Assembly: GCA_018656555.1 (NCBI GenBank)
Contig: JABHZQ010000025.1
Location: forward strand, 21,972-85,971
Length of the DNA: 64,000 bases
Direction of reading: 5' to 3'
Origin: an archaeon
GTDB lineage: Archaea; Nanobdellota; Nanobdellia; SCGC-AAA011-G17; GW2011-AR17
A program made the translations under genes and the position numbers. The notes beneath the pieces are model-generated. The model ran no database searches. It was not told where the DNA came from and saw nothing but the letters and a program-made list of their open reading frames with translations. Shown here piece by piece: positions 37,487 to 54,324 of this stretch (its first letter is position 1; each line of letters opens with the position of its first letter).

Positions 37487-38842
37487 ATGAAAAAAGGTTT
37501 TATTTATGGTGGTGCAGGAGTATTAGCTATTGTTGCTGTTGTTATTGCTTTGGCTGGAGGGGAGTTAGAGTGTGATGATAATGGTGATGGGATTGTTGAT
37601 GCTGAGGAATTAGAAATTTGTAGTCCCGGTTATATTGTAACTCAAATTAATACAGAAGAGAATGGGAAGATTGCTGTGAGGATAGATATACCTGATGAAC
37701 TTAGATATGGGGATGAAGCTCCAATAGTTGTTGTTGCTTCTACTTGGTTTGTTGAAAAGTATAATGATGAACAGAGTGAGTTTCACTTGATTTATAATCC
37801 TGTAGATGTTGGTGCTGTATCTGTTACTAATTTATGGCCTGGTAAGTATGATAAAAATACTGGAGTTGTTAGTGAAGGAGAGTATGATTTTGGTGGTGAG
37901 GATAGTTTGGCTGCTTTGAGAGATACAATTAGATTTTCTTTAGGTGAAATTCCAGATGTTAATGGAAAGTATTTACATGAATTGATTGAAGTTGATGTTC
38001 TTTATGATAATGTAGGAATGTTTGCTTCTTCCCATGCGGGGGTGGTTGCTACAAATGTTATGGCTTATTATGGAGAGGATTTACAATCTTTGAAGTATTT
38101 TGTTGGAAGAGAGAATCCTACCATGGCAGAGATGTATCCTTTGGAGATTGGACATTTTGATGAAGTTAAAAATAAAGTTTATAATCCTTATTATGATTAT
38201 AAGGGCTATACCTCCACTTCTATTGATGTTGATTATTCTGAAGTAACTTGGGTTGAGCAAGAGGAAGGGGGAAGGCCAGCCTTTGGAGATTATGTTTTAG
38301 ATTATAAGGGGCCACAGATAGATGGGAAATCTTATTTTTCACAAGCACTTACTCATGCTTTGTATGATAATGAAGCCTTTGATGAATGGCCAGATAATAT
38401 TGCAACTGTTGAAGAGGTGGATGAGTTTTGGCCTTATAGAATTACTGTGAATAACTACGATAAGATTGGAGAGAAGTTACCTGAATTGAAAGTGTTACTT
38501 CCTTTTGCTGCTGCTGATCATGTCCAAGCTGCTGATGATAAACCCCATATAAGGCAAGCTTATGATGGGTTTCATAAAACTGCTGGTTTGTGGACTAGGT
38601 TGAATTGTGATATTTCTTATGTTCAATCTGAGATTCATTCTAGTGCTGATGAAAATTTTCCTGATAATGATGCAAACAATGAACCAGATAGTTGGTATTT
38701 GGAAATTGAGGATTGGGGATTTCCAGATAAGTTGAATAATGAATTGACAGCTAGAACTGTTCCTTTGGCTGGTGTTGCAGAGATGGCTGATAGAGTTTAT
38801 TATGATAATTGGGATGATAATCTGGATGAAGTTTTGCAGTAA
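37487..38842 (+). CDS. Membrane-anchored/secreted protein, possible alpha/beta hydrolase fold
   Basis: N-terminal TM; DDNGDGIVDAEE Ca-binding loop; nucleophile-elbow-like GMFASSHAG; late His in ADHVQ. Confidence 0.5.
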   Translation: MKKGFIYGGAGVLAIVAVVIALAGGELECDDNGDGIVDAEELEICSPGYIVTQINTEENGKIAVRIDIPDELRYGDEAPIVVVASTWFVEKYNDEQSEFHLIYNPVDVGAVSVTNLWPGKYDKNTGVVSEGEYDFGGEDSLAALRDTIRFSLGEIPDVNGKYLHELIEVDVLYDNVGMFASSHAGVVATNVMAYYGEDLQSLKYFVGRENPTMAEMYPLEIGHFDEVKNKVYNPYYDYKGYTSTSIDVDYSEVTWVEQEEGGRPAFGDYVLDYKGPQIDGKSYFSQALTHALYDNEAFDEWPDNIATVEEVDEFWPYRITVNNYDKIGEKLPELKVLLPFAAADHVQAADDKPHIRQAYDGFHKTAGLWTRLNCDISYVQSEIHSSADENFPDNDANNEPDSWYLEIEDWGFPDKLNNELTARTVPLAGVAEMADRVYYDNWDDNLDEVLQ

Positions 38843-38874: not shown

Positions 38875-39597
38875 ATGAAAAGGTTGGAAAAGTTAAGACT
38901 GACTGTGAAAAGTAAAGATTCTAATATTGCTTTTGCAGATTTTACAGAGGTGTATGATGTTGAAGTTACAATTGGTAAAAGTAATTGTAGTATAAATATT
39001 AATTCTCCAAAAGTTGCTGCTATCCAAGGAGTGTTTGGTATGAAAGAGAAGGGTATTTTGTTTTTTTATGTTAGGAAGGGGGGTGTTGTTTATTTTAATC
39101 GTGGGAGAAGATGGATAAGGGCAAATGAAGGATCTAAGGTGGAATTGAATAAAGGAAATAGGCTTGGTTTTTTAGGTCCTGGAATTGAACCGGTTGGAGA
39201 GATTGATGATGTAACTGTTGAAGTTTCTATTGTTGAGATAATAACTGAAAATGTTCCTCAATTAGTTTTGAGGTGGGGAACTTTTGGTGCGAGGGTAGGT
39301 GAAATGCAAAGACAAGGTTTTGATAGGGATTTAGAGATTAAGGTTGGTGCTGTTGGAGGTAATGATATTATTTTAGATGATGGACATGTTTCTGGAAAGC
39401 ATGGAATGTTTAAAGTGGAGGGAAGTGTTTGGTATTATTATGATTTAAGCAGCACAATGGGTTCTTGGATTTATCAAGGGGGGCATTGGCATCAAGTAGC
39501 TGGGAAGATTCAAGTTTTTAAAGATACAAGGATTGTTTTTCTTGGAGAGGGGAGAAGACCAGTTTTTAAAATTGAGGTAGAAACTTTTAATGGGTGA
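38875..39597 (+). CDS. Tandem FHA-like domain protein (degenerate)
   Basis: IKVGAVGGNDIILDDGHVSGKHGMF..YYDLSSTMGSWI is an FHA pattern; weaker N-terminal copy TIGKSNCSININSPKVAAIQG. Confidence 0.75.
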   Translation: MKRLEKLRLTVKSKDSNIAFADFTEVYDVEVTIGKSNCSININSPKVAAIQGVFGMKEKGILFFYVRKGGVVYFNRGRRWIRANEGSKVELNKGNRLGFLGPGIEPVGEIDDVTVEVSIVEIITENVPQLVLRWGTFGARVGEMQRQGFDRDLEIKVGAVGGNDIILDDGHVSGKHGMFKVEGSVWYYYDLSSTMGSWIYQGGHWHQVAGKIQVFKDTRIVFLGEGRRPVFKIEVETFNG

Positions 39598-39953: not shown

Positions 39954-39988
39954 GAAGTTTTTTAAATTAGAATTTGTTTTTTATAGTT

Positions 39989-40831
39989 ATGATTGAGAAC
40001 CATATTAAGACTGTAATTTTATTGGGGGTATTAACTGGTGTTTTTTTGGGAGTGGGATATTTATTGGGATCAAATACTGGGTTAGCTTTTGGTTTAGCTT
40101 TTGCTGTTTTGATTAATTTTGGTGCTTATTTCTTTTCAGATAAGATTGTTTTAGCTATGTATAGAGCTAAAGAGGTTAAAGAGAAGGATAATCCTGAATT
40201 ATATAGAATTGTTAAGGAAGTTGTGCATTTGGCTCAAATTCCAATGCCTAAGTTGTATATTGTAAATAGTGCAAATCCTAATGCTTTTGCTACTGGAAGA
40301 AATCCAAAGAATAGTGCTGTTGCTGTGACCACTGGGATTTTGGATCTATTAGATAATAGTGAGTTGAAGGGAGTTATAGCTCATGAGCTTTCTCATATTA
40401 AGAATAGAGATATTCTTGTTTCAACTATTGCAGCTACAATTGCAGGTGTTATTTCTTATGTAGGTATGTTTGCAAGATGGGGTGCTATTTTTGGTGGGGG
40501 CGATAATAATAACAATAATATAGTTAGTTTGTTGGTATTAGGGATAATTACTCCAATAATGGCAGTTATTATTCAGTTGGCTATTTCAAGAACTAGAGAG
40601 TATATGGCTGATGAGAGTGCTGCTAAGATTTTGCATAGTCCTAATGGTTTGATTGGAGCTTTGGAGAAATTACATAATGGTGCTAAAAGACATCCTTTGA
40701 AGTTTGGTTCTAAAGCTGGTGCTTCTTTGTTTATTGTTAACCCTTTTTCTGCTAAGGGGTTTTTTTCTTGGTTGAGTACTCATCCACCTATGAATAAAAG
40801 AATTGAAAGATTGAAAGATCTTAATTTCTAA
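39989..40831 (+). CDS. htpX: Zinc metalloprotease HtpX (M48)
   Basis: PNAFATGRNP, AVTTG, GVIAHELSH, SRTREYMAD, STHPP. Start moved to ATG 39989, 22 nt after a TATA-like box. Confidence 0.95.
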   Translation: MIENHIKTVILLGVLTGVFLGVGYLLGSNTGLAFGLAFAVLINFGAYFFSDKIVLAMYRAKEVKEKDNPELYRIVKEVVHLAQIPMPKLYIVNSANPNAFATGRNPKNSAVAVTTGILDLLDNSELKGVIAHELSHIKNRDILVSTIAATIAGVISYVGMFARWGAIFGGGDNNNNNIVSLLVLGIITPIMAVIIQLAISRTREYMADESAAKILHSPNGLIGALEKLHNGAKRHPLKFGSKAGASLFIVNPFSAKGFFSWLSTHPPMNKRIERLKDLNF

Positions 40832-40856: not shown

Positions 40857-40908
40857 TTTATATATTCTAATATAAGTTAAATAGCTTATATAAGTTATAA
40901 AGTTTATA
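40857..40908 (+). promoter_or_regulatory. Promoter with repeated/inverted TATAAG elements, candidate operator of the HTH gene
   Basis: ATATAAG-N8-CTTATAT (40870-40891), palindrome CTTATATAAG (40885-40894), then TTATAAAG and TTTATAA before the ATG. Confidence 0.5.
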
Positions 40909-41100
40909 ATGGGTTTGACTGAGAAAGAGGTAGAGGTATTAAGATTAAAGAGGAAAGGGTTTACTCAGATTCAAATAGCTAAAAGATTAAAGATTTCTCA
41001 ACCAGCTGTTTCTTTTTTTTATAGAAATGCAATGAATAAGATTAGAGATAGTTATGAAACTGTTAAGTTGGCTAAAAAATTGAAGGTGAAAGATGAGTAA
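40909..41100 (+). CDS. Small HTH DNA-binding protein (LuxR/sigma70-region-4/Tfx-like)
   Basis: LTEKEVEVLRL..GFTQIQIAKRLKISQPAVS; its stop overlaps the next start. Confidence 0.85.
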   Translation: MGLTEKEVEVLRLKRKGFTQIQIAKRLKISQPAVSFFYRNAMNKIRDSYETVKLAKKLKVKDE

Positions 41101-44100
41101 GAGAGATTCACTTAGGACTATTGTAGTTATGATTTTAGCTATAGTTAGTTTGTGTTTTTTATCTTATACTGGTATGTATTTTGTTGAGCCTGATCTGGTA
41201 TATTTTGATTTGAATGAGAGTTGGGATTTAAATGGTAGTTTTGTTAGAGTTAGTCTGAATGATGAAGTTTATGATTATGATATTTATGTATTGATAGATC
41301 AAGTGTTTGTAGATTTAAGTGATGTTGAATTTAATTCTACTGGTGAGGGTTATGTTGATCTAATTGTTAATGAAGAAGTTGTTGATTCTATGAGTTTTTA
41401 TGTTTTAGATAATCTGGTTAATGAGACAAAAGATATTATTGCAGAACCAACTAATGAGACTATTTTAGATAATCCAGTAGAAGAGATTCTTGGTGGTCAG
41501 GAAGAAGTTATTGAAACAATGGATGAGACTAATCCTCCATCACATACTGCACCTATTTTGAATAGTACTGGAAGTAATTTGACAACTAATAATTTAACTG
41601 TTTTTAATCAGAGTACTGATGATTTAGATGGAGATCCAGTTAAGAATATTTATAATTGGTATAGAAATGGAGTTAGTTTGGCTGTCTTGAATATGCCTAT
41701 GGAAGGAGAGGTTTCTAATATGACAAATGTTAGAGATTATTCGGGGAATGGTAATAATGGGACTAATATTAGTGCAATTTGGAATAGGTTTGGTGGTTAT
41801 GATGGTTATGGTGCTTTTGAGTTTGATGGGATTGATGATTGGATTAATGTGGGCTATGATGATACATTAAATATTACTGAAGATTTATCTATTTCTTATT
41901 GGATAAAAAATTCAACAAACAATAATGCAGCCACTACTGATTGGGTAATTACTCGAGGAGATAGTTGGAATAATTTTAATTGGGGAATAGTCAAATCAAC
42001 TGGAGTTCTTGGAAAATTCCAATTTAGAATAACCCCTTATTGTAATGGGACGGGGGCAAGTGCTGGAAATTTCTATATTCAGGATGATAATTGGCATCAT
42101 GTTGCTGTTGCATATGAGAGTAGTGATGGAACTTACAATGTATGGGTTGATGGGGTTGTAAATTTAACTGCAGATACTTCTCTTGAAACATTGTGTTCTA
42201 CTACTAATGATTTGTATATTGGGGGAGGAATTACAAGTCGTTATTTTAATGGTTCTTTAGATGATGTAATGATTTTTAATAGAACTTTAACACCTCAACA
42301 GGTTGCTGCTCTTTATTTGAATCAATCTAATAGAATTGTTTCAAAAGAAACTACTGTTGGTGAGACCTGGAATGCTACTGTTACTCCTAATGATGGTTTT
42401 ATTGATGGGGAAACTCTTTGGACTGGTATTTTAGAAATTGTTTCTAATAATGCGCCGACACATACTACTCCTATTTTGAATTCTTCTTTAGGTACTAATT
42501 TGACAACTGAAAATTTAACTGTATATAATCAAAGTACTGCTGATGCTGATGGAGATAGAGTTAAGAATATTTATAATTGGTATGCGGAAAATGTAAGTCT
42601 TACTTTGTTGAATATGCCTTTTGAAGGTCATAGTTCTAATTTGACTCATGTTAAAGATTATTCTCCTTATGGAAATAATGGTACTAATTATAGTGCAGAA
42701 TGGAGTTCAACAAGTGGGTATGATGGTTATGGGTCTTTTGAATTTGAAGAATCAGATTATATTAATATGGGAGATAATGTAGATATTGGCACAAGTACTG
42801 ATATGTCTATTTCAACATGGATAAAAACTTCAACTAGAAATCAAGAGATTTTAGCTAAATCTGCAGGATCTACACCTTTGTATAGATTACAAGTAACAAC
42901 TGGTGGAGCAATATTAGGAAGAGTTAATGATGGTTCTAATAATGTAGCTTCAACTGGAACAACAAATGTTAGTGATGGTGCTTGGCATCATATTGTTTGG
43001 ACTTTGGATAGAGAGGATGAACAAGTAATTTATGTTGATGGGGTTGAAGAAGATAGAGATGATATTTCTGCAGTGGGAGATTTAGACAATTCTGGTATTT
43101 TAGCTATTGGAAGATTTGGTTCTTCTGCTACAAGTTATTTTAATGGTTCAATTGATGAGGTTATTATTTTTAATGCATCTCTAAGTGGGGATCAAGTTTT
43201 AGCTTTGTATCAAAATAGAACTGATCTGATACATTCTAGTATGACTGAAAAAGATATTGAGTGGAACGTTACAATTACACCTAATGATGGTTTTGTTGAT
43301 GGAGAGACTTTAAGTGTGGGATATTTAAGGATTCTTAATTCTCCAGTTATTCATGATGATCCTTTGTTAAATTCAACTTTAGGTACAAACTTAACTTCAG
43401 AAAATTTAACAGTTTATATTGTGGATCCAACTGATCCTGATGATGATAGTTATAATAATATTGTTAATTGGTATAGAAATGGGGCACCATTTAATATTTT
43501 GAATATTCCTCTAGAGGGAGAAGAGAGTAATTTAACAAGTGCAAAAGATTATTCTGGGTATAATAATAATGGTTCTATTATTTTAGATGGGGCTGGTGTT
43601 GGTTTGACTTGGAATAGAACTGGGGGTTATGATGGTGGAGGATCTTATGAGTTTGATGGTATTGATGATTATATTGCTATTAATGATCAGGATATGTTTG
43701 ATTTTGAGGATGAGAACTTTACAATTTCCCTTTGGATGAAATCTGATGCTGATGCAAGTATTAGTACTGCTATGAGGATTATTGGAAAGGGTAGAGTGGG
43801 TAGTGATATTGGGTATGATGTTTATTATCAACCAAGTAATGATAGAATTGGTTTTGGAGATGTGTCTGGAAGTGTTTATGTGTCTAGTCTTAGTGTTAAT
43901 GATGGTAATTGGCACCATATTGCTGTTAGATATATGCAAGGTAATTATTATGAGATTTATTATGATGGAGTAAATCAGACTATTTCTGGTTCGGGAACTT
44001 TAAATGGATTTGATGCTACAAGTGCACCCTTGACTATTGGAACTAGAATTTATGGGACTCCTGTTCATTTGTATAATGGTTCTGTTGATGAAGTTAGGAT

Positions 44101-47100
44101 TTTTAATTATACTTTGACACCAGAGGAGATTTTATTTTTAGCTAAGTATAGTACTAGTTTGATATCTTCATATGGAACAAGTAATGGTGAAGTATGGAAT
44201 GCTACTTTGACTCCTAATGATGGTTATGCTGATGGAGATACTAAATGGAGTAATAGTCTAGAGATTTTGGGTGGTTGTGTTGATGCTGATGGAGATGGTT
44301 GGAATGCAAGTGGGGCTGGTTGTGGTGTAGCTGATTGTGATGATAGTGATCCAATTACTAGACCTCTTGTAGATGGAGAGGTTCCTGTTAATGGTACTTT
44401 GAATAATTTAACTACAAGTATTATTATGTGTAATAATACTTATAATTTTGATATTTATGGTGCACCAACAGTTGCAAGAGCTATTCAAACACAAGCCGCT
44501 AATTTGCTTATTGACTGTAATGGTTCTTATTTGTTAGGTAATGCAACGGCAAGAGGTATGGCTATAGCACCATCACATGATAATATTACAATAAGGAATT
44601 GTGTAATTGATAATTTTACTGCAGCTTTTAGAGGAACAGATTTTAATTTTGGAGATGATGTATTTATTGATAATATTGTTGTAGGAACTACAGTAAATCA
44701 AACTATTGCTGGAAATAATGCAGATCGTTGGACTGTTTTTAATTCCACTTTGGCAGGAAATAAGAAAGGTGATGTGGGGATTGATATGTATTCAACTACA
44801 GTGATTAATTTTACACATAATATTGTGAATATGAGAATGAGAATAACATCAACTAATTCAGTTGTAAGGAGTAATAATTTTAACTATCCAGTTGATATTT
44901 ATGGGACTGGTACAGTTGCAGCATATAATAATTTTTCAGATGATGTAGGGATGTATGGGACAGGGAATAATACTTATGAGTTTAGTAATTTTTCTTCTGG
45001 GGATTTAGCTTTGTATCCTTCAGGGTCACTTTATTTTAGAAATAATACTGTGAGACCTAATGTTTCTTCTTTCCAGATGAATGGAGATGGTTTTGAAATT
45101 GAGGATAATGTTTTTGAGACTCCTAATGTGGCTAGAAATGCTTATTTTGGACTTCAACCCTGGGGTAATCCTGTAATGGCAAATTATTTAGTTAAAGATA
45201 ATTGGATTAATTCAACTGGAACTTTAGAGACTTTTAGACATGTTTTTTCAGTTGCAACAGGAAATATAACTTTTGTTAATAATACAATTTATACTCCCCT
45301 AAATAATTCCATAAGACTTTCTAATATTACTGGTTTTGTCAATATTAGTTATAATAATTTTGTTAGGGGTGGAAGGGGTGTTGATTTGGGTAATGTTTAT
45401 GATGGTGGTGAGATAAAGATTTATGCAAATAACTTTACAAATATTACAAATACTTCTATTACACTATATGATTTTACTGATTTTAATATAAGTAATAATT
45501 ATTTTTACAAAAATGGGTTTGCAATTTATTTAGATAATGTAAGTAATGGAGATATTGCTTATAATAACTTTACAAATACTTGGTTTAATGGTGTGGAAGG
45601 TGTTGGAACAGCAATAACTGGTAGGAATGTTACTTATTCAAGGTTTACAAAGAATTATTTTTATACTAGTGAAGACGGAGATATTCAAATTGGTAATTCA
45701 AGTTATAATAATTTAACTTATAATACAATTCAAGATACTTCTGGAGGAGATAATATCTTGTTTTCAGGTAAGGGTATTTTTAATATTTTTTCCCATAATT
45801 ATTTTGGAGGGGGAGGGAGTCCAGCCCTAACTTTATATGGTGATGATAATACTGTTTATAATAATACCATTTATGACCAAAGTTTAGGTATTTATATTAT
45901 TGGTAATAGTGCGAATGTTTCTAGTAATAATATAAGTTTGATTACTTCTGGTGAAAGTACTGCAGCTATAACTTTTTTAGTTTCAAATATGGGATCTATT
46001 TCTCGGAATAATATAAGTCATACAGATAGGGGTATCTATTTTTCAACTGCTGATAATATGACTTTATTTGATAATTATATTTATAATATGACCTTTGAGG
46101 GAATTCATTTATTGAATGGTAATAATCATACTATTTTTAATAACAATATTACTCTGGCCAGTAATTTTGCAATTGTTATGAATTCAAGTGAAGGTAATGT
46201 GATTTATAATAATTATTTTAATGCTGTTGTTCCTACTTGGGATAATAATACCAATTATTGGAATACCACAGAGCAGACAGGGCCCAATATTTTTGGTGGG
46301 ACAGATATGGGGGGTAATTATTTTAGTAACTATACTGGATATGATCATGATAATGATGGAATAGGAGATAATTTTGATTATGGAATTACTGCAGGAGCTA
46401 TGTTGGATTATCTTCCTTTGATAAATACTTGGGGCAATACTGTTCCAACCCAAAGTGCACCTGTATTAAATAGTACTTTTGGAACTAATTATACTACAGA
46501 AAATTTGACTACTTATAGCCAAGGAGTTAGTGATCTTGATGGAGATTTAATTAAGAAGATTACTAATTGGTATTTGAATGGTACTTCTTTATTAGTTTTG
46601 AATATGCCTTTTGAAGGTGAGATAAGTAATCAAACCAATGTTAAAGATTATTCAAGTTATGGTAGTAATGGAACTAATTATAGTGCTATGTGGAATAGAA
46701 CTGGTGGTTATGATGGTTATGGGGCTTTTGAGTTTGATGGAGATAATGATTATTTGATTATTCCTTCTTCTGAGAATTTAAATTTAACAGATGCTATTTC
46801 TGTAGAGGCGAGGTTTTTGATAAAAACTCCTTGTGAGAATTATGCTAGAATACTTTCTAAAGAAATTAATGATGTTAGTAATATTGATGATAGTTTCCTT
46901 TTGGGTTTTGATATTTCTTGTAATGATATTGCATTTCAAGTGTTTAATGAATCTCAAGAAGCAAGTACAGCTTTGACTAGTGGAGATATTTTATCTTCAG
47001 ATACTTGGTATCATGTTGTTGGAACTTATGAAATGGATGTAGGTACAAAAGTATATGTTAATGGTAATTTGAGTACTTCTGCAGAAGGATTTGGATCTAT

Positions 47101-48475
47101 GCAATTAAGTTCTGTTCCTTTAGCAATAGGTTCTCATTCAGATGCATCAGCTAATGATTTTAATGGAACAATTGATGAGGTAAGAATATGGAATGTTACC
47201 CTTTCATCAAATCAGATTAGGGAGTTGTATGAGAATAATTCTTTAATGGTTTCTCAGGAAACTAGCAAAGAAGAGGTTTGGAGATCTTGTATAATGGCTA
47301 ATGATGGTTATGCAGATGGACTAGAGAGTTGTAGTGGTAATTTGACTATTAGAAATTCTATTCCGGGTGTAAGTGTTAATATAACTTCTTATAGTTCTAG
47401 TAATGTTTCAACTTCAGATATTTACTCTAATTGGAGTATGAGTGATTTGGATGGAGAGCAATCTCAAGAGAATGAAACTAAGTGGTATAAGGATGATGTT
47501 TTAGAGAGTGATTTGACAAATTATTCCCTTATTGATGCTGGAAATTTAAGTGCTACAGAAGTTTGGAAGGTTTCAATTAGAGTTTATGATGGGGAAGAGT
47601 GGAGTTCTTGGACTAATGGTTCTATTACTTTGACAGAGACTTCTGCTGGACCCGATCCTACACCTACTTCTGGTGGAGGAGGTGGTGGATCTGGTGGAGG
47701 TATAGGGGTTTTGGATTTTGATTATGGATTAGAGGTAGAACCTGAAAGTCTTTATTATGAGATGACAAAGAATGAAGCAATAACTGATAGTTTAACATTT
47801 ACTAATTTAATGATTTTTGATCAGGATGTAGAATTACAAGTTAGTGGGGTTAGAGAGTTTGTAGATTTAGAGCAAGAAGAATTTACTTTAGAGCAAGAGG
47901 AAGAAAAAGATATTGAAGTGTTTGTTATTTCGGGAGAAGAATTAGGAACATTTACTGGGAACATTGGTGTTCAAGGGAATAATACTCAAATAGATATACC
48001 TGTTATTATTGGAGTAGAATCTTTGAATGTTTTGTTTGATGCTAGTATTGATTTGCCTTTAGGTCTTGATTTAATTTCTCCAGGAGATACATTACCTACA
48101 CAAATTACTATATTTAGTGTTGGATCTCCAAGAAAAGTTGATGTTATTTTGAATTATTATTTGAAAGATATGAATAATAATATAATTTGGGAGAAATCAG
48201 AGACTATAGCTGTAGAAGATCAAGTTTCATTTGAAACTTTATTTGAAATACCTGATAATTTAAGGGCTGGATCTTATGTTTTGGCTTTAGATGTTGTCTA
48301 TAGTACTTCAGTTGCAACCTCTTCAACTATGTTTACTGTGATGGATGAAGGGGGGGCTTTGATTTCATTTGAGAAGAATCAAGCAGTGTTATTGTTTATG
48401 ATTGTTTTGATGGTTGTTTTGATAGCTGGTGTGTTGGTATTACATTATGCTTTTTTGACTAGGTGGAATAGATAA
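41093..48475 (+). CDS. Giant surface protein: four LamG/concanavalin-A modules, right-handed beta-helix (NosD/CASH-like), Ig-like stalk, C-terminal TM
   Basis: N-terminal signal; four PILNS..NLTTENLT..DxDGD..NWY + LamG (WHHIAV, FNGSIDEVxIFN) units; DADGDG..DCDDSDP motif; Asn-ladder beta-helix ending GGNYFSNYTGYDHDNDGIGD; many NxS/T sequons; C-terminal hydrophobic segment. Confidence 0.9.
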   Translation: MSKRDSLRTIVVMILAIVSLCFLSYTGMYFVEPDLVYFDLNESWDLNGSFVRVSLNDEVYDYDIYVLIDQVFVDLSDVEFNSTGEGYVDLIVNEEVVDSMSFYVLDNLVNETKDIIAEPTNETILDNPVEEILGGQEEVIETMDETNPPSHTAPILNSTGSNLTTNNLTVFNQSTDDLDGDPVKNIYNWYRNGVSLAVLNMPMEGEVSNMTNVRDYSGNGNNGTNISAIWNRFGGYDGYGAFEFDGIDDWINVGYDDTLNITEDLSISYWIKNSTNNNAATTDWVITRGDSWNNFNWGIVKSTGVLGKFQFRITPYCNGTGASAGNFYIQDDNWHHVAVAYESSDGTYNVWVDGVVNLTADTSLETLCSTTNDLYIGGGITSRYFNGSLDDVMIFNRTLTPQQVAALYLNQSNRIVSKETTVGETWNATVTPNDGFIDGETLWTGILEIVSNNAPTHTTPILNSSLGTNLTTENLTVYNQSTADADGDRVKNIYNWYAENVSLTLLNMPFEGHSSNLTHVKDYSPYGNNGTNYSAEWSSTSGYDGYGSFEFEESDYINMGDNVDIGTSTDMSISTWIKTSTRNQEILAKSAGSTPLYRLQVTTGGAILGRVNDGSNNVASTGTTNVSDGAWHHIVWTLDREDEQVIYVDGVEEDRDDISAVGDLDNSGILAIGRFGSSATSYFNGSIDEVIIFNASLSGDQVLALYQNRTDLIHSSMTEKDIEWNVTITPNDGFVDGETLSVGYLRILNSPVIHDDPLLNSTLGTNLTSENLTVYIVDPTDPDDDSYNNIVNWYRNGAPFNILNIPLEGEESNLTSAKDYSGYNNNGSIILDGAGVGLTWNRTGGYDGGGSYEFDGIDDYIAINDQDMFDFEDENFTISLWMKSDADASISTAMRIIGKGRVGSDIGYDVYYQPSNDRIGFGDVSGSVYVSSLSVNDGNWHHIAVRYMQGNYYEIYYDGVNQTISGSGTLNGFDATSAPLTIGTRIYGTPVHLYNGSVDEVRIFNYTLTPEEILFLAKYSTSLISSYGTSNGEVWNATLTPNDGYADGDTKWSNSLEILGGCVDADGDGWNASGAGCGVADCDDSDPITRPLVDGEVPVNGTLNNLTTSIIMCNNTYNFDIYGAPTVARAIQTQAANLLIDCNGSYLLGNATARGMAIAPSHDNITIRNCVIDNFTAAFRGTDFNFGDDVFIDNIVVGTTVNQTIAGNNADRWTVFNSTLAGNKKGDVGIDMYSTTVINFTHNIVNMRMRITSTNSVVRSNNFNYPVDIYGTGTVAAYNNFSDDVGMYGTGNNTYEFSNFSSGDLALYPSGSLYFRNNTVRPNVSSFQMNGDGFEIEDNVFETPNVARNAYFGLQPWGNPVMANYLVKDNWINSTGTLETFRHVFSVATGNITFVNNTIYTPLNNSIRLSNITGFVNISYNNFVRGGRGVDLGNVYDGGEIKIYANNFTNITNTSITLYDFTDFNISNNYFYKNGFAIYLDNVSNGDIAYNNFTNTWFNGVEGVGTAITGRNVTYSRFTKNYFYTSEDGDIQIGNSSYNNLTYNTIQDTSGGDNILFSGKGIFNIFSHNYFGGGGSPALTLYGDDNTVYNNTIYDQSLGIYIIGNSANVSSNNISLITSGESTAAITFLVSNMGSISRNNISHTDRGIYFSTADNMTLFDNYIYNMTFEGIHLLNGNNHTIFNNNITLASNFAIVMNSSEGNVIYNNYFNAVVPTWDNNTNYWNTTEQTGPNIFGGTDMGGNYFSNYTGYDHDNDGIGDNFDYGITAGAMLDYLPLINTWGNTVPTQSAPVLNSTFGTNYTTENLTTYSQGVSDLDGDLIKKITNWYLNGTSLLVLNMPFEGEISNQTNVKDYSSYGSNGTNYSAMWNRTGGYDGYGAFEFDGDNDYLIIPSSENLNLTDAISVEARFLIKTPCENYARILSKEINDVSNIDDSFLLGFDISCNDIAFQVFNESQEASTALTSGDILSSDTWYHVVGTYEMDVGTKVYVNGNLSTSAEGFGSMQLSSVPLAIGSHSDASANDFNGTIDEVRIWNVTLSSNQIRELYENNSLMVSQETSKEEVWRSCIMANDGYADGLESCSGNLTIRNSIPGVSVNITSYSSSNVSTSDIYSNWSMSDLDGEQSQENETKWYKDDVLESDLTNYSLIDAGNLSATEVWKVSIRVYDGEEWSSWTNGSITLTETSAGPDPTPTSGGGGGGSGGGIGVLDFDYGLEVEPESLYYEMTKNEAITDSLTFTNLMIFDQDVELQVSGVREFVDLEQEEFTLEQEEEKDIEVFVISGEELGTFTGNIGVQGNNTQIDIPVIIGVESLNVLFDASIDLPLGLDLISPGDTLPTQITIFSVGSPRKVDVILNYYLKDMNNNIIWEKSETIAVEDQVSFETLFEIPDNLRAGSYVLALDVVYSTSVATSSTMFTVMDEGGALISFEKNQAVLLFMIVLMVVLIAGVLVLHYAFLTRWNR

Positions 48476-48528
48476 AAAGGTTTATATATTTAATTACATA
48501 ATAAAAGAATGAAAAAGGGTGAAAGGTA

Positions 48529-50769
48529 TTGAAAGGCAAATTTAGTAATAGAAGTTTACTTCCTTTTGTATTGATTATTGTAGTGCTAATAGTTTTATTA
48601 TTTTTTTCATTATTCTTATCTCAAAGCTCTATTTTATCTAGAGAGGTAGGGTTTTCTCAGAGTGAATTGAATGTTAATGAAGTTTTAGTTAAGGTTATGT
48701 TAAAACAAGGAGATTTTTTTGAAAGATCAATTCAAATAACTAATGATGGAGGTTCTGCTGAATCTGTATCTGTTTCGATAAGTGGTTTAGAGGATTTACT
48801 TTATTTGGATGAAAATAGTTTTACAATAGAACAAGGACAGGTTAAAACTTTAGATTTGAATTTTGTTTCTGTTTTGGAAGGATCTTATTTTGATCCAGGA
48901 GTTTACATTGGGGGTTTAAATTTCCAATATGGGGAAGAAGAGGTGAGCTTACCTATTATTGTTGAAATTGAGTCTTCTGAAACTTTGTTTGATATGAATC
49001 TAGATTTTTCAGTAAATGATAGATATGTGGTTTTGGGTGGAACAGCTTTAGCAGATATAACTGTTTACAATTTTGCAGAACTAGATTTAGCTACTGTTGA
49101 TATGGTTTATGTTGTATCGGATGCCAATGGTAATAGGCTGTTAACTGAAGAGGAGAATTTAGTTGTTGAAACTCAAGCTTCTGTTTCTAAGTCTATTTTT
49201 GTTCCTGATAATTTTGCAGAAGGAAAATATATCTTTTATTCTACTGTAAGTTATGGTGATTCTGTTGGGACTGCGAGTTATATTTTTGATGTTGCTTCTG
49301 GTGAACCAGATAGTAAGTTAAATTTAGGTTCAATTTGTGCTCCAGAAGATCCTTTATGTTGGATTTCTTTGGTTATTTTAATAATTTTGATATTTTTTAT
49401 TGGGGCATATGCTTATTTTTATCTTGGTTCCTTTTTGTATAAAAAAGTAAGTTTGGATGAGAAAAAGATTACTGATAAAAAGGTTAGAAAACAAGGTCCA
49501 ATTTTATATTTTTTTGTATTGCTTGTAATTATTATATTGGTGATTGTTATGTTTTATTTGTCTAATTTTATGAGTATTCAGTCTTTGGTTGGTTCATTTT
49601 CTAATATGCCTGTGGGTGTTTTGTGGGCAATTCTTATTTTGCTTGCACTAATGGTTGTTTTAGTAATTTTGAATACAGTTTTTGGTTTACTTAATAGTTT
49701 GAGTAATTATTTTTCTAAGTCGGGTGGGAAAGAGGAAGAAAGAAGAAAATCTGAGCTTGTTAAGGAAATTATTGAAAGAAGAAGAAAGGTGGAATTGAGA
49801 ACTTCTGAAGAGAGTTTAAGAAAGCAAGAGGTGCCAGAGAAGAAAGAGGGATCATTTTTTACTCCAATTAAGCTTTATTTTGCAGATAGGAGAAAAGAGA
49901 AAGAGAAAAGAAGAAAAGCTGCTGAGAGGAAGAGAGCATTGATGAGAAGAGAGGAAGAGATGAGAAAGCAAGAGCAGGAAAGGATGAGGTTGGCTGCTGA
50001 GAGGAAGAGAGTTTTAGAGATTAAGAGAAGAGAAGCTGCTGAGAGGAGAAGAAAGGAAGAGGCTGCTAAAAAGAAAAAGGTGGGTGTATTTGCTTCTATT
50101 TCTGGTTATTTTGCAAGAAGGAAGAAGGAGAAGGAAAGGAAGAGGAATTTAGAATTAAAGAATAAAAAGGAAGAGCATAGTAAAAAGAGTAAAGAGGAAT
50201 TAAGGAAGGATAGGGAGATTCAATTAAGTTTACAAAAGGAGTGGGATGTTAATGAGGGGAGAAGAAAGGTAGAAGAACGAAAGGTTAGAGCGGCTGAAAT
50301 AGAGTTAGAAAAGGCAGAAAGAAATAAACAGATGCAGATTGAAAGAGAGATACAAGAAGTGAGACTTAAGAAAAAAGAGGATAAAAGAAGGAAGAAAGAA
50401 AAGAAAAAATTAGAAAGGGTTAGGAAGAAGAGAAGAAAAGGACCTTTATTTGGATTTGGTGGGAAAAAGAAGGCAAGAGAAGAGGTAAAAGAAGTTAAAA
50501 AGAAAGCTGAAAAGACAATTGATGTTAAATCTGTGGATCCAAGAGAGAAAATTGTACAGTTAATGAAAAATTGTTCCTTAAATATTAAGCGTAGAAATTA
50601 CTTGATGGCAGAGAGCAATTATGAACAAATAAAACCTATGTATGCTAAATTGAATTCTGATGAGCAGAGGTATTATTATCCAAATTTAGTTAGATTACAA
50701 AACCAGATGGTTATGTTAAAGATGGAGTTAGTTAGAGAGAAATTACAGAAAAGAAGATTTAGGGTCTAA
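48529..50769 (+). CDS. Four-TM membrane protein with extracellular double Ig-like module and long K/R/E-rich cytoplasmic tail
   Basis: TTG start with SD-like GGGTGA 6 nt upstream; TM1, ~210-aa beta-rich module, three more TMs, highly charged helix, C-terminal helical domain. Confidence 0.8.
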   Translation: MKGKFSNRSLLPFVLIIVVLIVLLFFSLFLSQSSILSREVGFSQSELNVNEVLVKVMLKQGDFFERSIQITNDGGSAESVSVSISGLEDLLYLDENSFTIEQGQVKTLDLNFVSVLEGSYFDPGVYIGGLNFQYGEEEVSLPIIVEIESSETLFDMNLDFSVNDRYVVLGGTALADITVYNFAELDLATVDMVYVVSDANGNRLLTEEENLVVETQASVSKSIFVPDNFAEGKYIFYSTVSYGDSVGTASYIFDVASGEPDSKLNLGSICAPEDPLCWISLVILIILIFFIGAYAYFYLGSFLYKKVSLDEKKITDKKVRKQGPILYFFVLLVIIILVIVMFYLSNFMSIQSLVGSFSNMPVGVLWAILILLALMVVLVILNTVFGLLNSLSNYFSKSGGKEEERRKSELVKEIIERRRKVELRTSEESLRKQEVPEKKEGSFFTPIKLYFADRRKEKEKRRKAAERKRALMRREEEMRKQEQERMRLAAERKRVLEIKRREAAERRRKEEAAKKKKVGVFASISGYFARRKKEKERKRNLELKNKKEEHSKKSKEELRKDREIQLSLQKEWDVNEGRRKVEERKVRAAEIELEKAERNKQMQIEREIQEVRLKKKEDKRRKKEKKKLERVRKKRRKGPLFGFGGKKKAREEVKEVKKKAEKTIDVKSVDPREKIVQLMKNCSLNIKRRNYLMAESNYEQIKPMYAKLNSDEQRYYYPNLVRLQNQMVMLKMELVREKLQKRRFRV

Positions 50770-51061
50770 AGACTTCTAATTTACCTAATTTTCCAGAAGT
50801 TATTTGTAGAATTCCTTGAAATTCTGATGAATATCCATTGGTTATTTTTATTTTATCTCCAATTTTTACTCTGTCTACATCCTCATTCCAAAGAGTTACA
50901 CATATTTTACCCGTATCATCAAAACCTAGAGCAGTTATAACTCTTCCAGAGGTTCCAAATTTGCTAAAACTTCTTTCATCTCCAAAATCTTTTATTGTTA
51001 ACTCTACATCTATTTTTCTTTGTTTGGGTTTTATGTCTTTTACTTTCATTTGTTTAGCCAA
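50759..51061 (-). CDS. Single OB-fold ssDNA-binding protein (SSB/RPA-like)
   Basis: DDTGKICVTLWNE, GDKIKITNGY..EFQG..QIT.GK.G pattern of archaeal single-OB SSBs. Confidence 0.85.
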   Translation of the reverse strand: MAKQMKVKDIKPKQRKIDVELTIKDFGDERSFSKFGTSGRVITALGFDDTGKICVTLWNEDVDRVKIGDKIKITNGYSSEFQGILQITSGKLGKLEVFRP

Positions 51062-52203
51062 GAAATTTCATCTTCACCCAAATTTAGTTCTGATATCATT
51101 TCTGGATTATTGAGTATGTTTTTAAGATATGGAAAGGTATCTTGAAGTGCTCTTTTCCTAGAACAGTGAGTTGCATCTGCAAGTTTTTCAGAGATTGTTA
51201 ATTTTTTGCCATTTCTCATTTTTGCTTGCCAGAGTTTTAATATTCTTGTTGTTCTTGTATATTTTATAGATGAATTTTTATTTTGTTTTTTGGCGTTTGC
51301 TATTCCAGCTGAGAGATGTGAATGGATGTATACAAGAAATCTCCAATATTGCCATCTTCTTATTCTTCCCCTAAACACATCTGCTTTTGATAATAAGGGA
51401 TAGGCTTTTTTTAATTCATCTGAATCATATTCTTTTGGTAGGTTTTCATCTACCCAGAGAAAAATTTCATCTGTATTTAGTGTTGTTTTGCTAAAGATGT
51501 TGTTTGTTACTTTGATATCTTTTTCTTGTAATACTTTTTGTAGACAGAAGGTTATTTCTTCTGTTTTATCTCTTTCACCATTATCTTCTAAGATTAATTT
51601 GTTGTTGATTATATTTGTTTGTAGATCATTAATTGCTGCTCTTATATCTCCTTTTGATTTTTCTGCTATTATTTGAATATCTGCTGGATCAAATTCTACT
51701 TTTTCTTGTGATGCAATGTATTGTAATTTTGCCATTATTTTATTTTTAGGCAGGTTAGCGAATTCAATTAATTGTGTTTTTTTCCTTAATGTGGAGAGTT
51801 TATCAATCCATGGATTTGTACAAGTGAATATTACAGGATAAGGACTTTTGGAAATTAAAGAGACTAGGGCAGGTAAGCATCCTCTGTCTTTTGTTCCAGA
51901 TATTGCATCTATATCATCTATTAGAACTATTTTACCTTGGTGGAATAGGCTTTGTTGATTTATTGCATTCCCAATTATTTGGGTTATCGCATCTTTGTTT
52001 CTGGTTTGTGATGAATTTATTTCTATTACTTCATAATTGAGTTCTTTGGCTAAAGTGTAGATGATTGTTGTTTTTCCAGTTCCAGTTGAACCATAGAGAA
52101 GTAGGGGTCTTTTGAGATTTGTTTTTATTTGGTTGATAGCTATCTCTTGTCCTATAACCTCTTTACTTGATTGAGGTTTGTATTTTTCAGTCCAGGGTAA
52201 CAT
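51046..52203 (-). CDS. rfcL: Replication factor C large subunit
   Basis: WTEKYKP, YGSTGTGKTT, IEINSS, LIDDID, GDIRAAINDLQ, ADVFRGRIRRWQYWRF. Confidence 0.93.
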   Translation of the reverse strand: MLPWTEKYKPQSSKEVIGQEIAINQIKTNLKRPLLLYGSTGTGKTTIIYTLAKELNYEVIEINSSQTRNKDAITQIIGNAINQQSLFHQGKIVLIDDIDAISGTKDRGCLPALVSLISKSPYPVIFTCTNPWIDKLSTLRKKTQLIEFANLPKNKIMAKLQYIASQEKVEFDPADIQIIAEKSKGDIRAAINDLQTNIINNKLILEDNGERDKTEEITFCLQKVLQEKDIKVTNNIFSKTTLNTDEIFLWVDENLPKEYDSDELKKAYPLLSKADVFRGRIRRWQYWRFLVYIHSHLSAGIANAKKQNKNSSIKYTRTTRILKLWQAKMRNGKKLTISEKLADATHCSRKRALQDTFPYLKNILNNPEMISELNLGEDEISWLNK

Positions 52204-53383
52204 TTTTTATTTTTATTGGATGACCTAATTTTTTTAGGTTTTTCTCAATTATAATTACAGCCTCTTTAATATTCTCTTTTTTAGTGTTATCAAGTTCTCC
52301 TGTTGTCTTAATTATTTTAAGTTCTATTTCTTTTAGTTCCTTTGTTACTTCTTCTAATTTTTCTTCAAATTTATTTTCTTTCATAGTTTTTTGGTTACTT
52401 GATAAATTTTCACTTAATTCCTTGGTTTTTTCCTTGTATACATCACTATATTCTATTAGGGCTGTTATTTGTTTATTTGTTTTTTCTGGATTTTTAAGAA
52501 TTATTTCTTTACTATCTATATTTTCTTTTAGTTGTTTTAGAATTTGTTTTAATTTTTCTGGATTTTTAGCTATGAATTTTTGATCTTTTAAAGACTCAAG
52601 TGTTTTTTGATCATCTTTTAATAGTTTTCTTAGGCTGTGCTCTAAAGGAGTATATTTGCTTAGAAGTTCTGAGTTTAGATTAGTGATGTTTTCTAGTATT
52701 TCTTTATTCTTGTATTTTAATAATTCATATTTTTTAAACTCTGGGCTAGTTCTCAATGTTTCTATTTTTTGGTTTATTGATTTTTCTTTTTGATCTAATG
52801 TTTCTTTTTCTTTGTTTAATTTATGGTGCTTTTCATCTACTTCTTTATTTTTTATAACATTATCATTTATTTCTTTTATTTTTAGATGAATTTCTTCTAT
52901 TTCCTTAAGATTATGTTTTTCTAGGGTTTCTGATATTTTTTTTACAGAACTGTCAAGGTGTTGTAGGGCTTTTCTTATTTCTTCTAATTCTTGCCCAACT
53001 AGGGTTTTTATGATATGATAATTTCTTATTGTTCTTTTGTTTAAGTTTTTTAGTTTATCATCAAATTCTTTAGTGTAATTAGTTAATGATTCATAATCTA
53101 GTTTTTTTGGTTCATCTATTTTATTTAAGAATGATTTTAGTGCAGTGATATATGTTTTTTTATTGGTTTTTACTGCGTTTTCTATTCTTTTGGCATTGTC
53201 TTTTGTTTTTGCTTTACTTAATTGGGACATTGCTTCTTCTAATGAGAATTTTGCGAGCTTGAATTCATTTAGTTCTTTATCGAGGGAGAATTCTATATTA
53301 TTAACCAGCCAAGAACTTAATTCGTTAAATGATATATCTTTTATTTCCTCTTTTTTTTGAAATAGTTTTTTTAGGAAGTTCAT
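52187..53383 (-). CDS. Coiled-coil hypothetical protein between rfcS and rfcL
   Basis: 398-aa K/E/L-rich heptad protein overlapping both neighbours. Confidence 0.75.
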   Translation of the reverse strand: MNFLKKLFQKKEEIKDISFNELSSWLVNNIEFSLDKELNEFKLAKFSLEEAMSQLSKAKTKDNAKRIENAVKTNKKTYITALKSFLNKIDEPKKLDYESLTNYTKEFDDKLKNLNKRTIRNYHIIKTLVGQELEEIRKALQHLDSSVKKISETLEKHNLKEIEEIHLKIKEINDNVIKNKEVDEKHHKLNKEKETLDQKEKSINQKIETLRTSPEFKKYELLKYKNKEILENITNLNSELLSKYTPLEHSLRKLLKDDQKTLESLKDQKFIAKNPEKLKQILKQLKENIDSKEIILKNPEKTNKQITALIEYSDVYKEKTKELSENLSSNQKTMKENKFEEKLEEVTKELKEIELKIIKTTGELDNTKKENIKEAVIIIEKNLKKLGHPIKIKNVTLD

Positions 53384-54324
53384 TTTGCGAAATTTGCTAA
53401 TAGTGCTTCTAGTTGTATAAATTCATCAGAGCCTTCAACCATTCTAAATTCTATTTCTCCACATTTGTCAATTAGGTCTAATTTTCTAGTGTCATCTAAT
53501 TCTTCAATTTTTAGTATTTCTTGTTGTATTTGTTTTACTGTATCAAGGCCTGAAAGACCATGATTTAACATTGTTTGGAGTAATTTATTTCTGGCATCGA
53601 TGAATTTCTTATTAATAGCTAAGGATAAGACTTCTTTTATTTCTTTCGGTTGGGCTGCTGAAACTAGTGAATAGATGATTTCATTGTTTATTTCTTTGGT
53701 AATTGAAGCAGAGCTTTGTAAGATATTGGTAATTCTTCTTACATCTCCTCCAGTAATTGTTACAAGTTCTTTGATTGCGTTTTCAGCTATCTCTAGGCCT
53801 TCTCCTTTTGCAATATTTTCAACATAATCTTTTACTTCTTCTTCATTTAATGGTTTGAATCTGAATACGGTACATCTACTTTGGATTGGATCTATTATTT
53901 TAGATGAAAAGTTACAAGAAAGGATGAATCGTGTGCCCAGAACAAAGTTTTCCATTGTTCTTCTTAATGCTTGTTGTGCTTCTTTTGTTAATGAATCACA
54001 TTCATCTAGGAAAATTATTTTAAAAGGGACATCGCCCATTCCTTTTGTTTTTGCAAAATCTTTAATTGTGTTTCTTACAACATCAATACCTCTTTCATCA
54101 GATGCATTTAATTCTAAGAAGTTTTGTTTCCATGATTCTTTGAATAGTTGTCTAGCTACAATTAATGCTAATGTTGATTTTCCTACACCCGCTGGACCAG
54201 AGAATAATAGGTGGGGCATGTTTTTTTGATCAACAAAAGCTTTGACTCTTTCAACTATTTGTTTTTGACCTTTTATATCCTCAAAAGAGTGAGGACGATA
54301 CTTTTCAGTCCATATTGATGACAT
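53380..54324 (-). CDS. rfcS: Replication factor C small subunit
   Basis: WTEKYRP, FSGPAGVGKS, LELNASDERGIDVVR, LDECD, ALRRTME, IQSRC. Confidence 0.97.
   Translation of the reverse strand: MSSIWTEKYRPHSFEDIKGQKQIVERVKAFVDQKNMPHLLFSGPAGVGKSTLALIVARQLFKESWKQNFLELNASDERGIDVVRNTIKDFAKTKGMGDVPFKIIFLDECDSLTKEAQQALRRTMENFVLGTRFILSCNFSSKIIDPIQSRCTVFRFKPLNEEEVKDYVENIAKGEGLEIAENAIKELVTITGGDVRRITNILQSSASITKEINNEIIYSLVSAAQPKEIKEVLSLAINKKFIDARNKLLQTMLNHGLSGLDTVKQIQQEILKIEELDDTRKLDLIDKCGEIEFRMVEGSDEFIQLEALLANFAK

Follow-up and report, generated by a model that had tools for sequence, protein, structure and literature searches.

What a very large surface protein and the membrane protein encoded directly behind it do together is the question raised by a 64,000-nucleotide (nt) stretch of DNA from a Nanobdellota archaeon (GenBank assembly GCA_018656555.1, contig JABHZQ010000025.1, positions 21,972 to 85,971), which will be called the window. 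Coordinates given below are positions in the window, L-numbers denote loci, and P-numbers denote representative homologous proteins. A short helix-turn-helix (HTH) gene is followed there by the gene of a 2460-amino-acid (aa) protein, the giant or head chain, and by that of a 746-aa protein, the partner or tail chain. An initial sequence-only reading had proposed that the two large proteins share a membrane-proximal double immunoglobulin (Ig)-like module, through which they assemble into a two-chain receptor controlled by the HTH gene. The answer that we favour, with roughly even confidence, is that the gene pair is one copy of a two-gene envelope cassette that is conserved among Woesearchaeota-type DPANN archaea, encoding a structural adhesion or envelope complex and not a signalling receptor. 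Little is known of how DPANN archaea attach to hosts and surfaces or of how their envelopes are built; few of them have been cultured, and annotation is lacking for most of the proteins on their surface.

Important first evidence comes from the homology of the two chains. The C-terminus of the giant and the N-terminus of the partner share 28% identity over 178 aa (BLASTP as a single comparison, E 8e-21). In phmmer searches against all six-frame open reading frames (ORFs) of the window, each module retrieves just these two proteins (E 4e-20 and 3e-19), and no further copies were found elsewhere in the 64 kb with phmmer or a hidden Markov model (HMM). Comparing tail-type with head-type module alignments from other genomes using hhalign gives a probability of 100% and E 2e-57 over 210 columns. 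AlphaFold2 (AF2) folds the giant's module into two sandwich domains that are all beta (mean predicted local distance difference test score, pLDDT, 91.2; predicted template modelling score, pTM, 0.85). The shared double-Ig module, first aligned by eye, has therefore been borne out by pairwise alignment, profile alignment and structure prediction, with HMM envelopes slightly wider than the boundaries originally drawn. Structural searching with Foldseek returns RbmA of Vibrio cholerae as the top match (TM-score 0.59, E 8e-8), with ASH/hydin and macroglobulin domains scoring similarly. Sequence families are less informative: Pfam-A yields only sub-threshold Ig-like matches (Cep192_D6 at 17.7 bits against a cutoff of 35, Cep192_D3, HYDIN-like and Wzt_C), the best match among PDB sequences has an E value of 0.2 and is not significant, and the sole curated NCBIfam model to touch the module, NF033506, does so below threshold.

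An exhaustive profile search covering 1.84 billion representative proteins can be used to outline the module family, which comprises 5006 clusters (50% identity) at E<=1e-3 and 1091 at E<=1e-30. Two architectures predominate in the 154 best representatives. Head-type proteins run from a signal or transmembrane segment through a variable head and a poly-Gly linker to the module, a transmembrane helix and a short tail. Tail-type proteins begin with a transmembrane helix, followed by the module, one to three further transmembrane helices and a K/R/E-rich tail of 150-1300 aa, and have no Gly linker. In 153 of the 154 a transmembrane helix comes after the module, the exception being P0113. The modules themselves fall into the same two types: mean identity is 56% among tail-type (A-type) modules and 47% among head-type (B-type) modules, but only 28% between the types and 23-33% between the two modules of one locus. 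Judged by these identities, the A-type and B-type modules are best described as ancient paralogues. Recent duplication or gene conversion, which was considered as a source of the resemblance, is ruled out by the same figures. Since identity between types is so low beside that within them, the adjacency of the two genes must have been kept since an old duplication. The two module types also give a mirror-tree correlation of r 0.90, which mainly reflects shared phylogeny and is not counted as evidence of interaction.

How regularly the two types travel together can be asked of other genomes. We defined a cassette as adjacent module genes on the same strand, the first bearing a head and lacking a tail, the second headless and long-tailed. 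The window pair fits this definition, with 2215 aa before the module and 37 after it in the giant, against 48 before and 484 after in the partner. Close relatives of the partner (homologues include P0001-P0005, P0010 and P0011), which are 41-57% identical over most of the protein, share the order HTH gene, giant, partner. Searching the species genomes of GTDB with tail-type seeds gave 49 loci, whose record titles mostly read Woesearchaeota or Nanoarchaeota/Nanoarchaeia, with one Aenigmatarchaeota and 16 'uncultured Methanosarcinales', which we take to be a default label. At 41 tail-gene loci the gene immediately 5' bears a module and has the same orientation; among the remaining neighbours the most conserved family, a PP-loop ATPase, reaches 30 of 52 loci, in shifting positions and on either strand. 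An independent search of metagenomes, seeded with head-type modules, added many more head-to-tail gene pairs. The pooled total is 75 same-strand adjacent pairs from metagenome-assembled genomes (MAGs) of Woesearchaeota and Nanoarchaeota and from metagenomes. Across them, the median length ahead of the module in the first gene is 142 aa (maximum 2215) and that behind it 42 aa (interquartile range, IQR, 37-47, transmembrane helix included); in the second gene the medians are 40 aa ahead of the module and 398 aa (IQR 153-719) behind it. Reverse gene order was met at L051 only. The paired head/tail architecture expected by the sequence-only reading thus recurs across DPANN genomes in a fixed order and is tighter than the association with any flanking gene. 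Pairing could be a by-product of synteny, and the window's near relatives, being wholly syntenic, are weak evidence when taken alone; this explanation was rejected, since across 51 loci the pair stays while the flanks change. The cassette sits among RFC, IleRS, TBP, PP-loop ATPase and GTPase genes. No paper naming or describing it was found in the literature searched, nor any Pfam, NCBIfam or PDB family, in agreement with the early impression that no named system has this layout.

Adjacency alone does not make a complex. The two chains could be independent membrane or surface proteins that share a stalk or anchor domain, their adjacency being a relic of tandem duplication kept for co-regulation with no contact between the products. 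The presence of the module in thousands of proteins of many architectures speaks for this explanation, as do solitary genes of both types, one MAG that holds a pair plus a lone tail-type gene (L036, L048) and a possible internal promoter between the window's two genes. We nevertheless consider it unlikely, because gene order and head/tail complementarity are fixed in all 75 pairs and because adjacency persists at such low paralogue identity despite rearranged flanks. Spacing argues the same way: among 74 pairs with measured intergenic distances, stop and start overlap by a few nucleotides in 18 (by 4 nt in 15 cases), and in 32 the genes are no more than 60 nt apart. Finally, 10 of the 23 genes scored as solitary encode a single chain that has a head as well as a cytoplasmic segment, with at least 87 aa following the module.

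Such one-chain proteins are of interest in their own right. Their shorter tails (~90-110 aa after the module) often finish with the motif AYxxGYIxxxxYxxxKxRI, which is absent from the window's two proteins. The motif presumably recalls SHOCT, a likeness that Pfam left unconfirmed, with no SHOCT match at E<=0.01 in scans of P0018 and P0019. A natural fusion is provided by P0042 (648 aa), which reads head, module, transmembrane helix, loop, transmembrane helix, half module, transmembrane helix, tail; its predicted topology puts both modules outside the cell and is consistent with modules that sit side by side. Other arrangements were also seen. Two complete tail-type units stand in tandem in P0009 (1448 aa) and in the ORF at L054:8000-12361, and ORFs of ~147-150 aa that match the module's first beta-sandwich only lie directly 5' of solitary module genes (L061:1956-2399, L078:5062-5502 and L081:3912-4361).

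Several observations weigh against a cassette of two co-assembling chains. Some 18 module genes stand alone on stretches that extend at least 1.5 kb to either side of them. Tail-type genes occur with no head gene nearby (L044, L047, L048 and L050), and the giant head-type genes of L125 and L126 precede a GTPase gene in place of a tail gene. Because solitary genes of both types occur, either chain can be encoded with no partner gene beside it. Spacings of 100-900 nt are seen in many Woesearchaeal pairs, and in the window the 53-nt spacer between the giant's stop and the partner's TTG start (48476-48528) contains the TATA-like box TTTATATA, with GGTGA following it 8 nt ahead of the TTG. This box is a candidate internal promoter that may serve the partner gene. 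Given the wide spacings and the box, strict co-transcription is not assured. Contact between the chains is putative, and a shared anchor or stalk domain alone could account for their homology. The partner's tail, moreover, matches no family in Pfam, NCBIfam or PDB above threshold.

The head chain carries everything that points outward. From its N-terminal signal or transmembrane anchor (aa 10-28 in a hydropathy scan) the giant passes through three LamG units, a Cys-rich segment with a beta-helix, a fourth LamG unit, a Gly linker and the module to a second transmembrane helix (aa 2432-2450), which leaves 10 residues inside the cell. Pfam assigns it firmly to Laminin_G_3 (PF13385; E 3.4e-75, 251.7 bits against a cutoff of 27.6, four stretches), and self-BLAST shows the three tandem units to be 39-46% identical to one another; the top Laminin_G_3 stretch, aa 1882-2042, falls in the fourth. 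The right-handed beta-helix likewise scores above the NosD (PF05048; 70 bits, cutoff 23.6; E 2.4e-19 at aa 1569-1749) and Beta_helix (PF13229; 58.9 bits, cutoff 25.9; E 5.9e-16, four stretches) thresholds. The giant has 110 N-X-S/T sequons against ~48 expected from its composition, with one in its module and none in the ectodomain of the partner. This distribution would fit an exposed, glycan-coated head over a packed stalk in contact with protein.

Heads can evidently be exchanged. Among the window's near relatives the head chain measures 1503, >1756, 2460 and 2954 aa. Giants of other lineages carry four LamG units with Ig domains (L010, L016 and L054) or beta-helices (L042 and L001), and L001 has a Cys-rich segment in place of the first half of the module. 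A small head of ~115 aa, made of SSYK-like repeats and a Cys-rich knot, is found at 28 loci. A lectin head, part of the original proposal, is therefore well founded for the window and its four LamG units; as a general feature it does not hold, being one of several heads. A separate curiosity concerns L016:2-9604, a 3201-aa head-type giant and predicted surface adhesin from a related MAG: at aa ~1259-1623 it harbours an intein (Pfam Intein_splicing and Hint), for which such a protein is an unusual host.

Sequence comparison also indicates that the gene pair is evolving much faster than its neighbours. For example, the small subunit of replication factor C (RFC-S) is 97.8% identical between the window and L056, a Candidatus Woesearchaeota MAG, where the partner is 78.6% identical; for L001 the values are 83% and 41%. 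The closeness of RFC-S to that of L056 also bears out the assignment of the window to DPANN. Rapid divergence is one of the points that can be cited for another explanation, in which both chains are bulk constituents of an envelope that resembles an S-layer. In Woesearchaeota and Pacearchaeota the module would then form the lattice, or the base of the envelope next to the membrane, with heads decorating the lattice and tails fixing it from inside and shaping the cell. The placement of the cassette among housekeeping genes would suit this role. So would modules that are unglycosylated by sequon count, a best structural match (RbmA) that is a matrix-scaffolding tandem FnIII protein, and the weak similarity to NF033506, the 'PACE-CTERM putative S-layer protein' model. 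The last of these is a slender link, as the giant's C-terminus scores 20.1 bits (E 2e-4) and P0019 34.3 bits (E 1e-8) against a cutoff of 110, both being partial matches within model positions 380-588 of 627. Heads that range from ~115 to >3000 aa would also be hard to fit into a regular lattice. We regard the S-layer explanation as distinctly improbable, and it overlaps with the adhesion or envelope complex that we favour, in that it likewise implies contact between modules.

The tail chain is the inward-facing counterpart. Its order is a first transmembrane helix (TM1), the module, a Cys loop, three further helices (TM2-4) and a 351-aa charged helical cytoplasmic tail; a hydropathy scan places the four helices at aa 10-28, 276-294, 325-343 and 362-380. 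The contrast described by the sequence-only reading, a giant almost without a tail and a headless partner with three extra helices and a tail of ~350 aa, is therefore correct. TM3 and TM4 are absent from some orthologues, leaving the topology unaltered, and P0003, P0004 and P0005 have a single helix after the module. Family tails contain ~20% K, 10% R and 18% E, with a median net charge of +48 (+56 in the window). The AF2 model of the full-length partner has an overall pLDDT of 67, as expected of a long tail, and predicts two long helices, one of 70 residues (aa 445-515) and one of 100 (aa 536-636); the aromatic-basic islands between the tail helices are modelled with low confidence. At the C-terminus lies a three-helix domain with pLDDT 90-94 over aa ~670-730. 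It is conserved across ~40 tail chains and matches no Pfam or PDB family, the top PDB profile hit (E 0.002) being to unrelated helical proteins.

Short motifs recur along these tails. The motif [FL][FL]H[KR][IL]GL[YV]KTxEEK was observed 57 times in family tails against 4.3 in shuffles, with one to three copies per tail in many of them, such as P0030, P0064 and P0065. The window's clade carries the variant (S/V)FxxIxxYFA(K/R)RKKEKE, with degenerate copies at 49852-49896 and 50086-50127. For comparison, a tail peptide reads SFFTPIKLYFADRRK and a consensus tail peptide FLHKIGLYKTPEEK. We infer that these motifs may act as amphipathic staples that touch the membrane. No kinase, phosphatase, cyclase, anti-sigma or DNA-binding family was matched by the partner's tail in Pfam, and neither a transmitter domain nor a Pfam or NCBIfam output domain of the two-component or anti-sigma type was found in the partner. 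Since no signalling domain is recognisable and tail length varies more than 10-fold in the family (~100 to >1300 aa), the tail reads as a scaffold or spacer. Of the two roles first suggested for it, that of an effector is not supported, and a charged helical scaffold or tether is the likelier one.

These properties also bear on the receptor originally envisaged, a transmembrane sensor of two chains, whose lectin head would bind a ligand and whose tail, on the partner, would pass the signal to an effector and in the end to the HTH regulator. Its transmembrane two-chain topology was confirmed. The end of the HTH gene overlaps the start of the giant gene by 8 nt, so that the two are translationally coupled, and TATA-like boxes lie 5' of the HTH gene at 40857 and 40886. 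L001 and one related JGI contig have retained the HTH gene, with a protein of 155 aa in the latter. Against a sensor stand the absence of a signalling-type family match in the tail, the spacer-like variation in tail length and the absence of the HTH gene from the great majority of pairs: it was found 5' of the pair only in the window and in those two relatives. The HTH protein, at just 63 aa, also lacks a sensor or partner-binding domain. We consider a sensor very improbable. The HTH protein belongs to the LuxR/GerE type (Pfam GerE, PF00196, residues 2-46; E 4.9e-11, 42.5 bits against a cutoff of 23.5). It falls short of the Tfx family (NCBIfam TIGR00721; E 1.3e-12, 47.8 bits against a cutoff of 60.25), covering model positions 7-64 of 137 only; it resembles the N-terminal 58 residues of Tfx, whereas Tfx proteins have ~137-145 aa with a C-terminal domain that it lacks. 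As a conserved third component of the system, which the early proposal made it, the HTH gene was rejected, being confined to the window's close relatives. It may still regulate the cassette there as a lineage-specific, translationally coupled gene.

In most other pairs the upstream position is taken by a divergently transcribed membrane protein of 215-228 aa. This protein (family 33, e.g., L017:7566-8210 on the reverse strand) has one transmembrane helix and an internal duplication, and lies just 5' of the head gene in 24 Woesearchaeal loci. It gave no Pfam match and has no homologue in the window.

With these alternatives weighed, the structural adhesion or envelope complex can be described as a mechanism. 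Both chains would reside in the cytoplasmic membrane, each setting its paralogous double beta-sandwich module on the outer face. The head chain would bear all of the outward parts, N-glycosylated LamG units (four) and a beta-helix on a poly-Gly tether, with essentially no cytoplasmic part. The tail chain would expose only its module, and inside the cell a long, positive, mostly alpha-helical tail and its terminal three-helix domain. Most likely, the two modules would pack laterally against each other, either in a hetero-oligomer or within a lattice; sequon-poor modules beside a head with 110 sequons are consistent with such a packed protein-protein surface. An exposed, probably adhesive head would in this way be mechanically coupled to a scaffold or tether beneath the membrane. 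A bolder version makes the cassette the core of a trans-envelope attachment device, a functional analogue of a heterodimeric adhesion receptor, in which swappable, fast-evolving heads (a small knob, or LamG or beta-helix giants) bind the surface of a host or substrate, and heteromeric double-Ig stalks couple them to a membrane-stapled, charged helical skeleton within the cell that transmits force or organizes the contact site. We put this forward tentatively, as rather unlikely. Co-assembly, if it takes place, would amount to a new principle by which archaea link an interchangeable adhesin with the cell interior. In any case the family, with thousands of members, can now be searched for through its module profile, its two paralogous subtypes and the head-then-tail rule.

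Table 1. Coordinates of the three genes and of the parts of the two chains within the 64,000-nt window.
Feature	Position	Strand	Basis or details
HTH gene	40909..41100	+	63 aa; open reading frame
Giant (head-chain) gene	41093..48475	+	2460 aa; open reading frame
Three consecutive LamG/ConA-like lectin units (aa 140-455, 453-751, 751-1059)	41510..44269	+	self-BLAST; Pfam Laminin_G_3, G_2, G_1
Cys-rich segment and right-handed beta-helix (NosD-like), ~aa 1060-1780	44270..46432	+	Pfam
Fourth LamG unit (aa 1785-2086)	46445..47350	+	self-BLAST, 42% identity to unit 1
Poly-Gly linker GGGGGGSGGG (aa 2194-2203), head/module junction	47672..47701	+	sequence read
Head-type (B-type) module, aa 2216-2423	47738..48361	+	HMM envelope
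C-terminal transmembrane anchor, aa 2432-2450	48386..48442	+	hydropathy scan
TATA-box-like element TTTATATA	48481..48488	+	direct sequence read, in 53-nt spacer
Partner (tail-chain) gene	48529..50769	+	746 aa, TTG start
Tail-type (A-type) module, aa 49-262	48673..49314	+	HMM envelope; AF2 strands aa 47-256; no N-glycosylation sequons
CAPEDPLC Cys loop (aa 270-277) at membrane face and TM2/TM3/TM4	49336..49668	+	sequence, hydropathy
K/R/E-rich cytoplasmic tail with aromatic-basic islands at aa 442, 520, 639	49714..50538	+	composition, AF2
Conserved C-terminal three-helix domain, aa 671-745	50539..50763	+	alignment, AF2

The flanks of the genes listed in Table 1 are archaeal housekeeping genes (PolD DP2, PolB, Cdc48, topoisomerase, the large and small subunits of RFC, IleRS and SerRS); TBP was annotated solely in contigs of relatives that are syntenic with the window. 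Immediately 5' of the HTH gene comes an M48 peptidase gene (39974-40831), which has the same placement in the related JGI contig. Further upstream are a 240-aa FHA-domain protein (38875-39597, forward strand) and, preceding it, a 451-aa ORF with no Pfam match (37487-38842, forward strand). Two long ORFs match no Pfam family at E<=1e-4: one of 2078 aa at 30-6266 on the forward strand, which begins close to the edge of the window and perhaps encodes a further giant, and one of 741 aa at 9734-11959 on the reverse strand. Downstream, a 398-aa gene with no Pfam match (52187-53383, reverse strand) lies between the large (51046-52203) and small (53380-54324) RFC subunit genes and overlaps both, an order kept in L001, L055 and L056; it may encode an undescribed protein associated with the clamp loader. 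GC skew across the window is strongly positive (0.35-0.5) at genes on the forward strand and near zero or negative at those on the reverse strand, which indicates a marked bias of G over C on the coding strand in a genome of 27-38% GC.

Comparison with known systems shows what is familiar about the cassette and what is not. In NF033506 proteins the aligned region lies just before the C-terminal anchor, the same membrane-proximal position as the module. Their anchor is a sorting signal, whereas the giant ends in a plain transmembrane helix with 10 aa and the partner in a long tail, and no paired tail chain is known for them. RbmA (PDB 4kkp, 4be6) is likewise a tandem FnIII/Ig-like pair that scaffolds through protein-protein and matrix contacts. 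It is, however, a secreted bacterial protein with no transmembrane anchor and 13-15% identity to the module, and the resemblance is generic for tandem beta-sandwiches. SlaA and SlaB of the Sulfolobales are encoded by adjacent genes and jointly build the envelope from a surface-exposed chain and a membrane-anchored beta-sandwich stalk chain. Unlike in the cassette, SlaA lacks a transmembrane anchor, SlaB places a coiled coil outside the cell, and the two have no common paralogous module and no long cytoplasmic tail. Neither name appeared among the Pfam and NCBIfam matches, the comparison being one of layout and not of SlaA or SlaB sequences.

Closest to the head chain are the giant LamG/beta-helix proteins of the SPEARE type in nanohaloarchaea, very large, LamG-rich and glycosylation-rich predicted adhesins of host-dependent, nano-sized archaea. 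The giant adhesin taken alone is therefore of a kind already known. Descriptions of SPEARE-type proteins cover the head; the double-Ig module, the poly-Gly tether and the downstream tail gene were not found described. For the pair as a whole, the nearest analogy is offered by heterodimeric receptors of the integrin type, in which two membrane chains combine membrane-adjacent beta-sandwich legs, an outer ligand-binding head and cytoplasmic tails held on an internal scaffold. This likeness is one of function only and does not extend to homology: the cassette is archaeal, places head and tail on separate chains and has a very long, charged helical tail. Its parts, Ig-like stalks, transmembrane anchors, lectin domains and charged helices, are ordinary, and it is at the level of the system, with a function that we infer, that the cassette is new.

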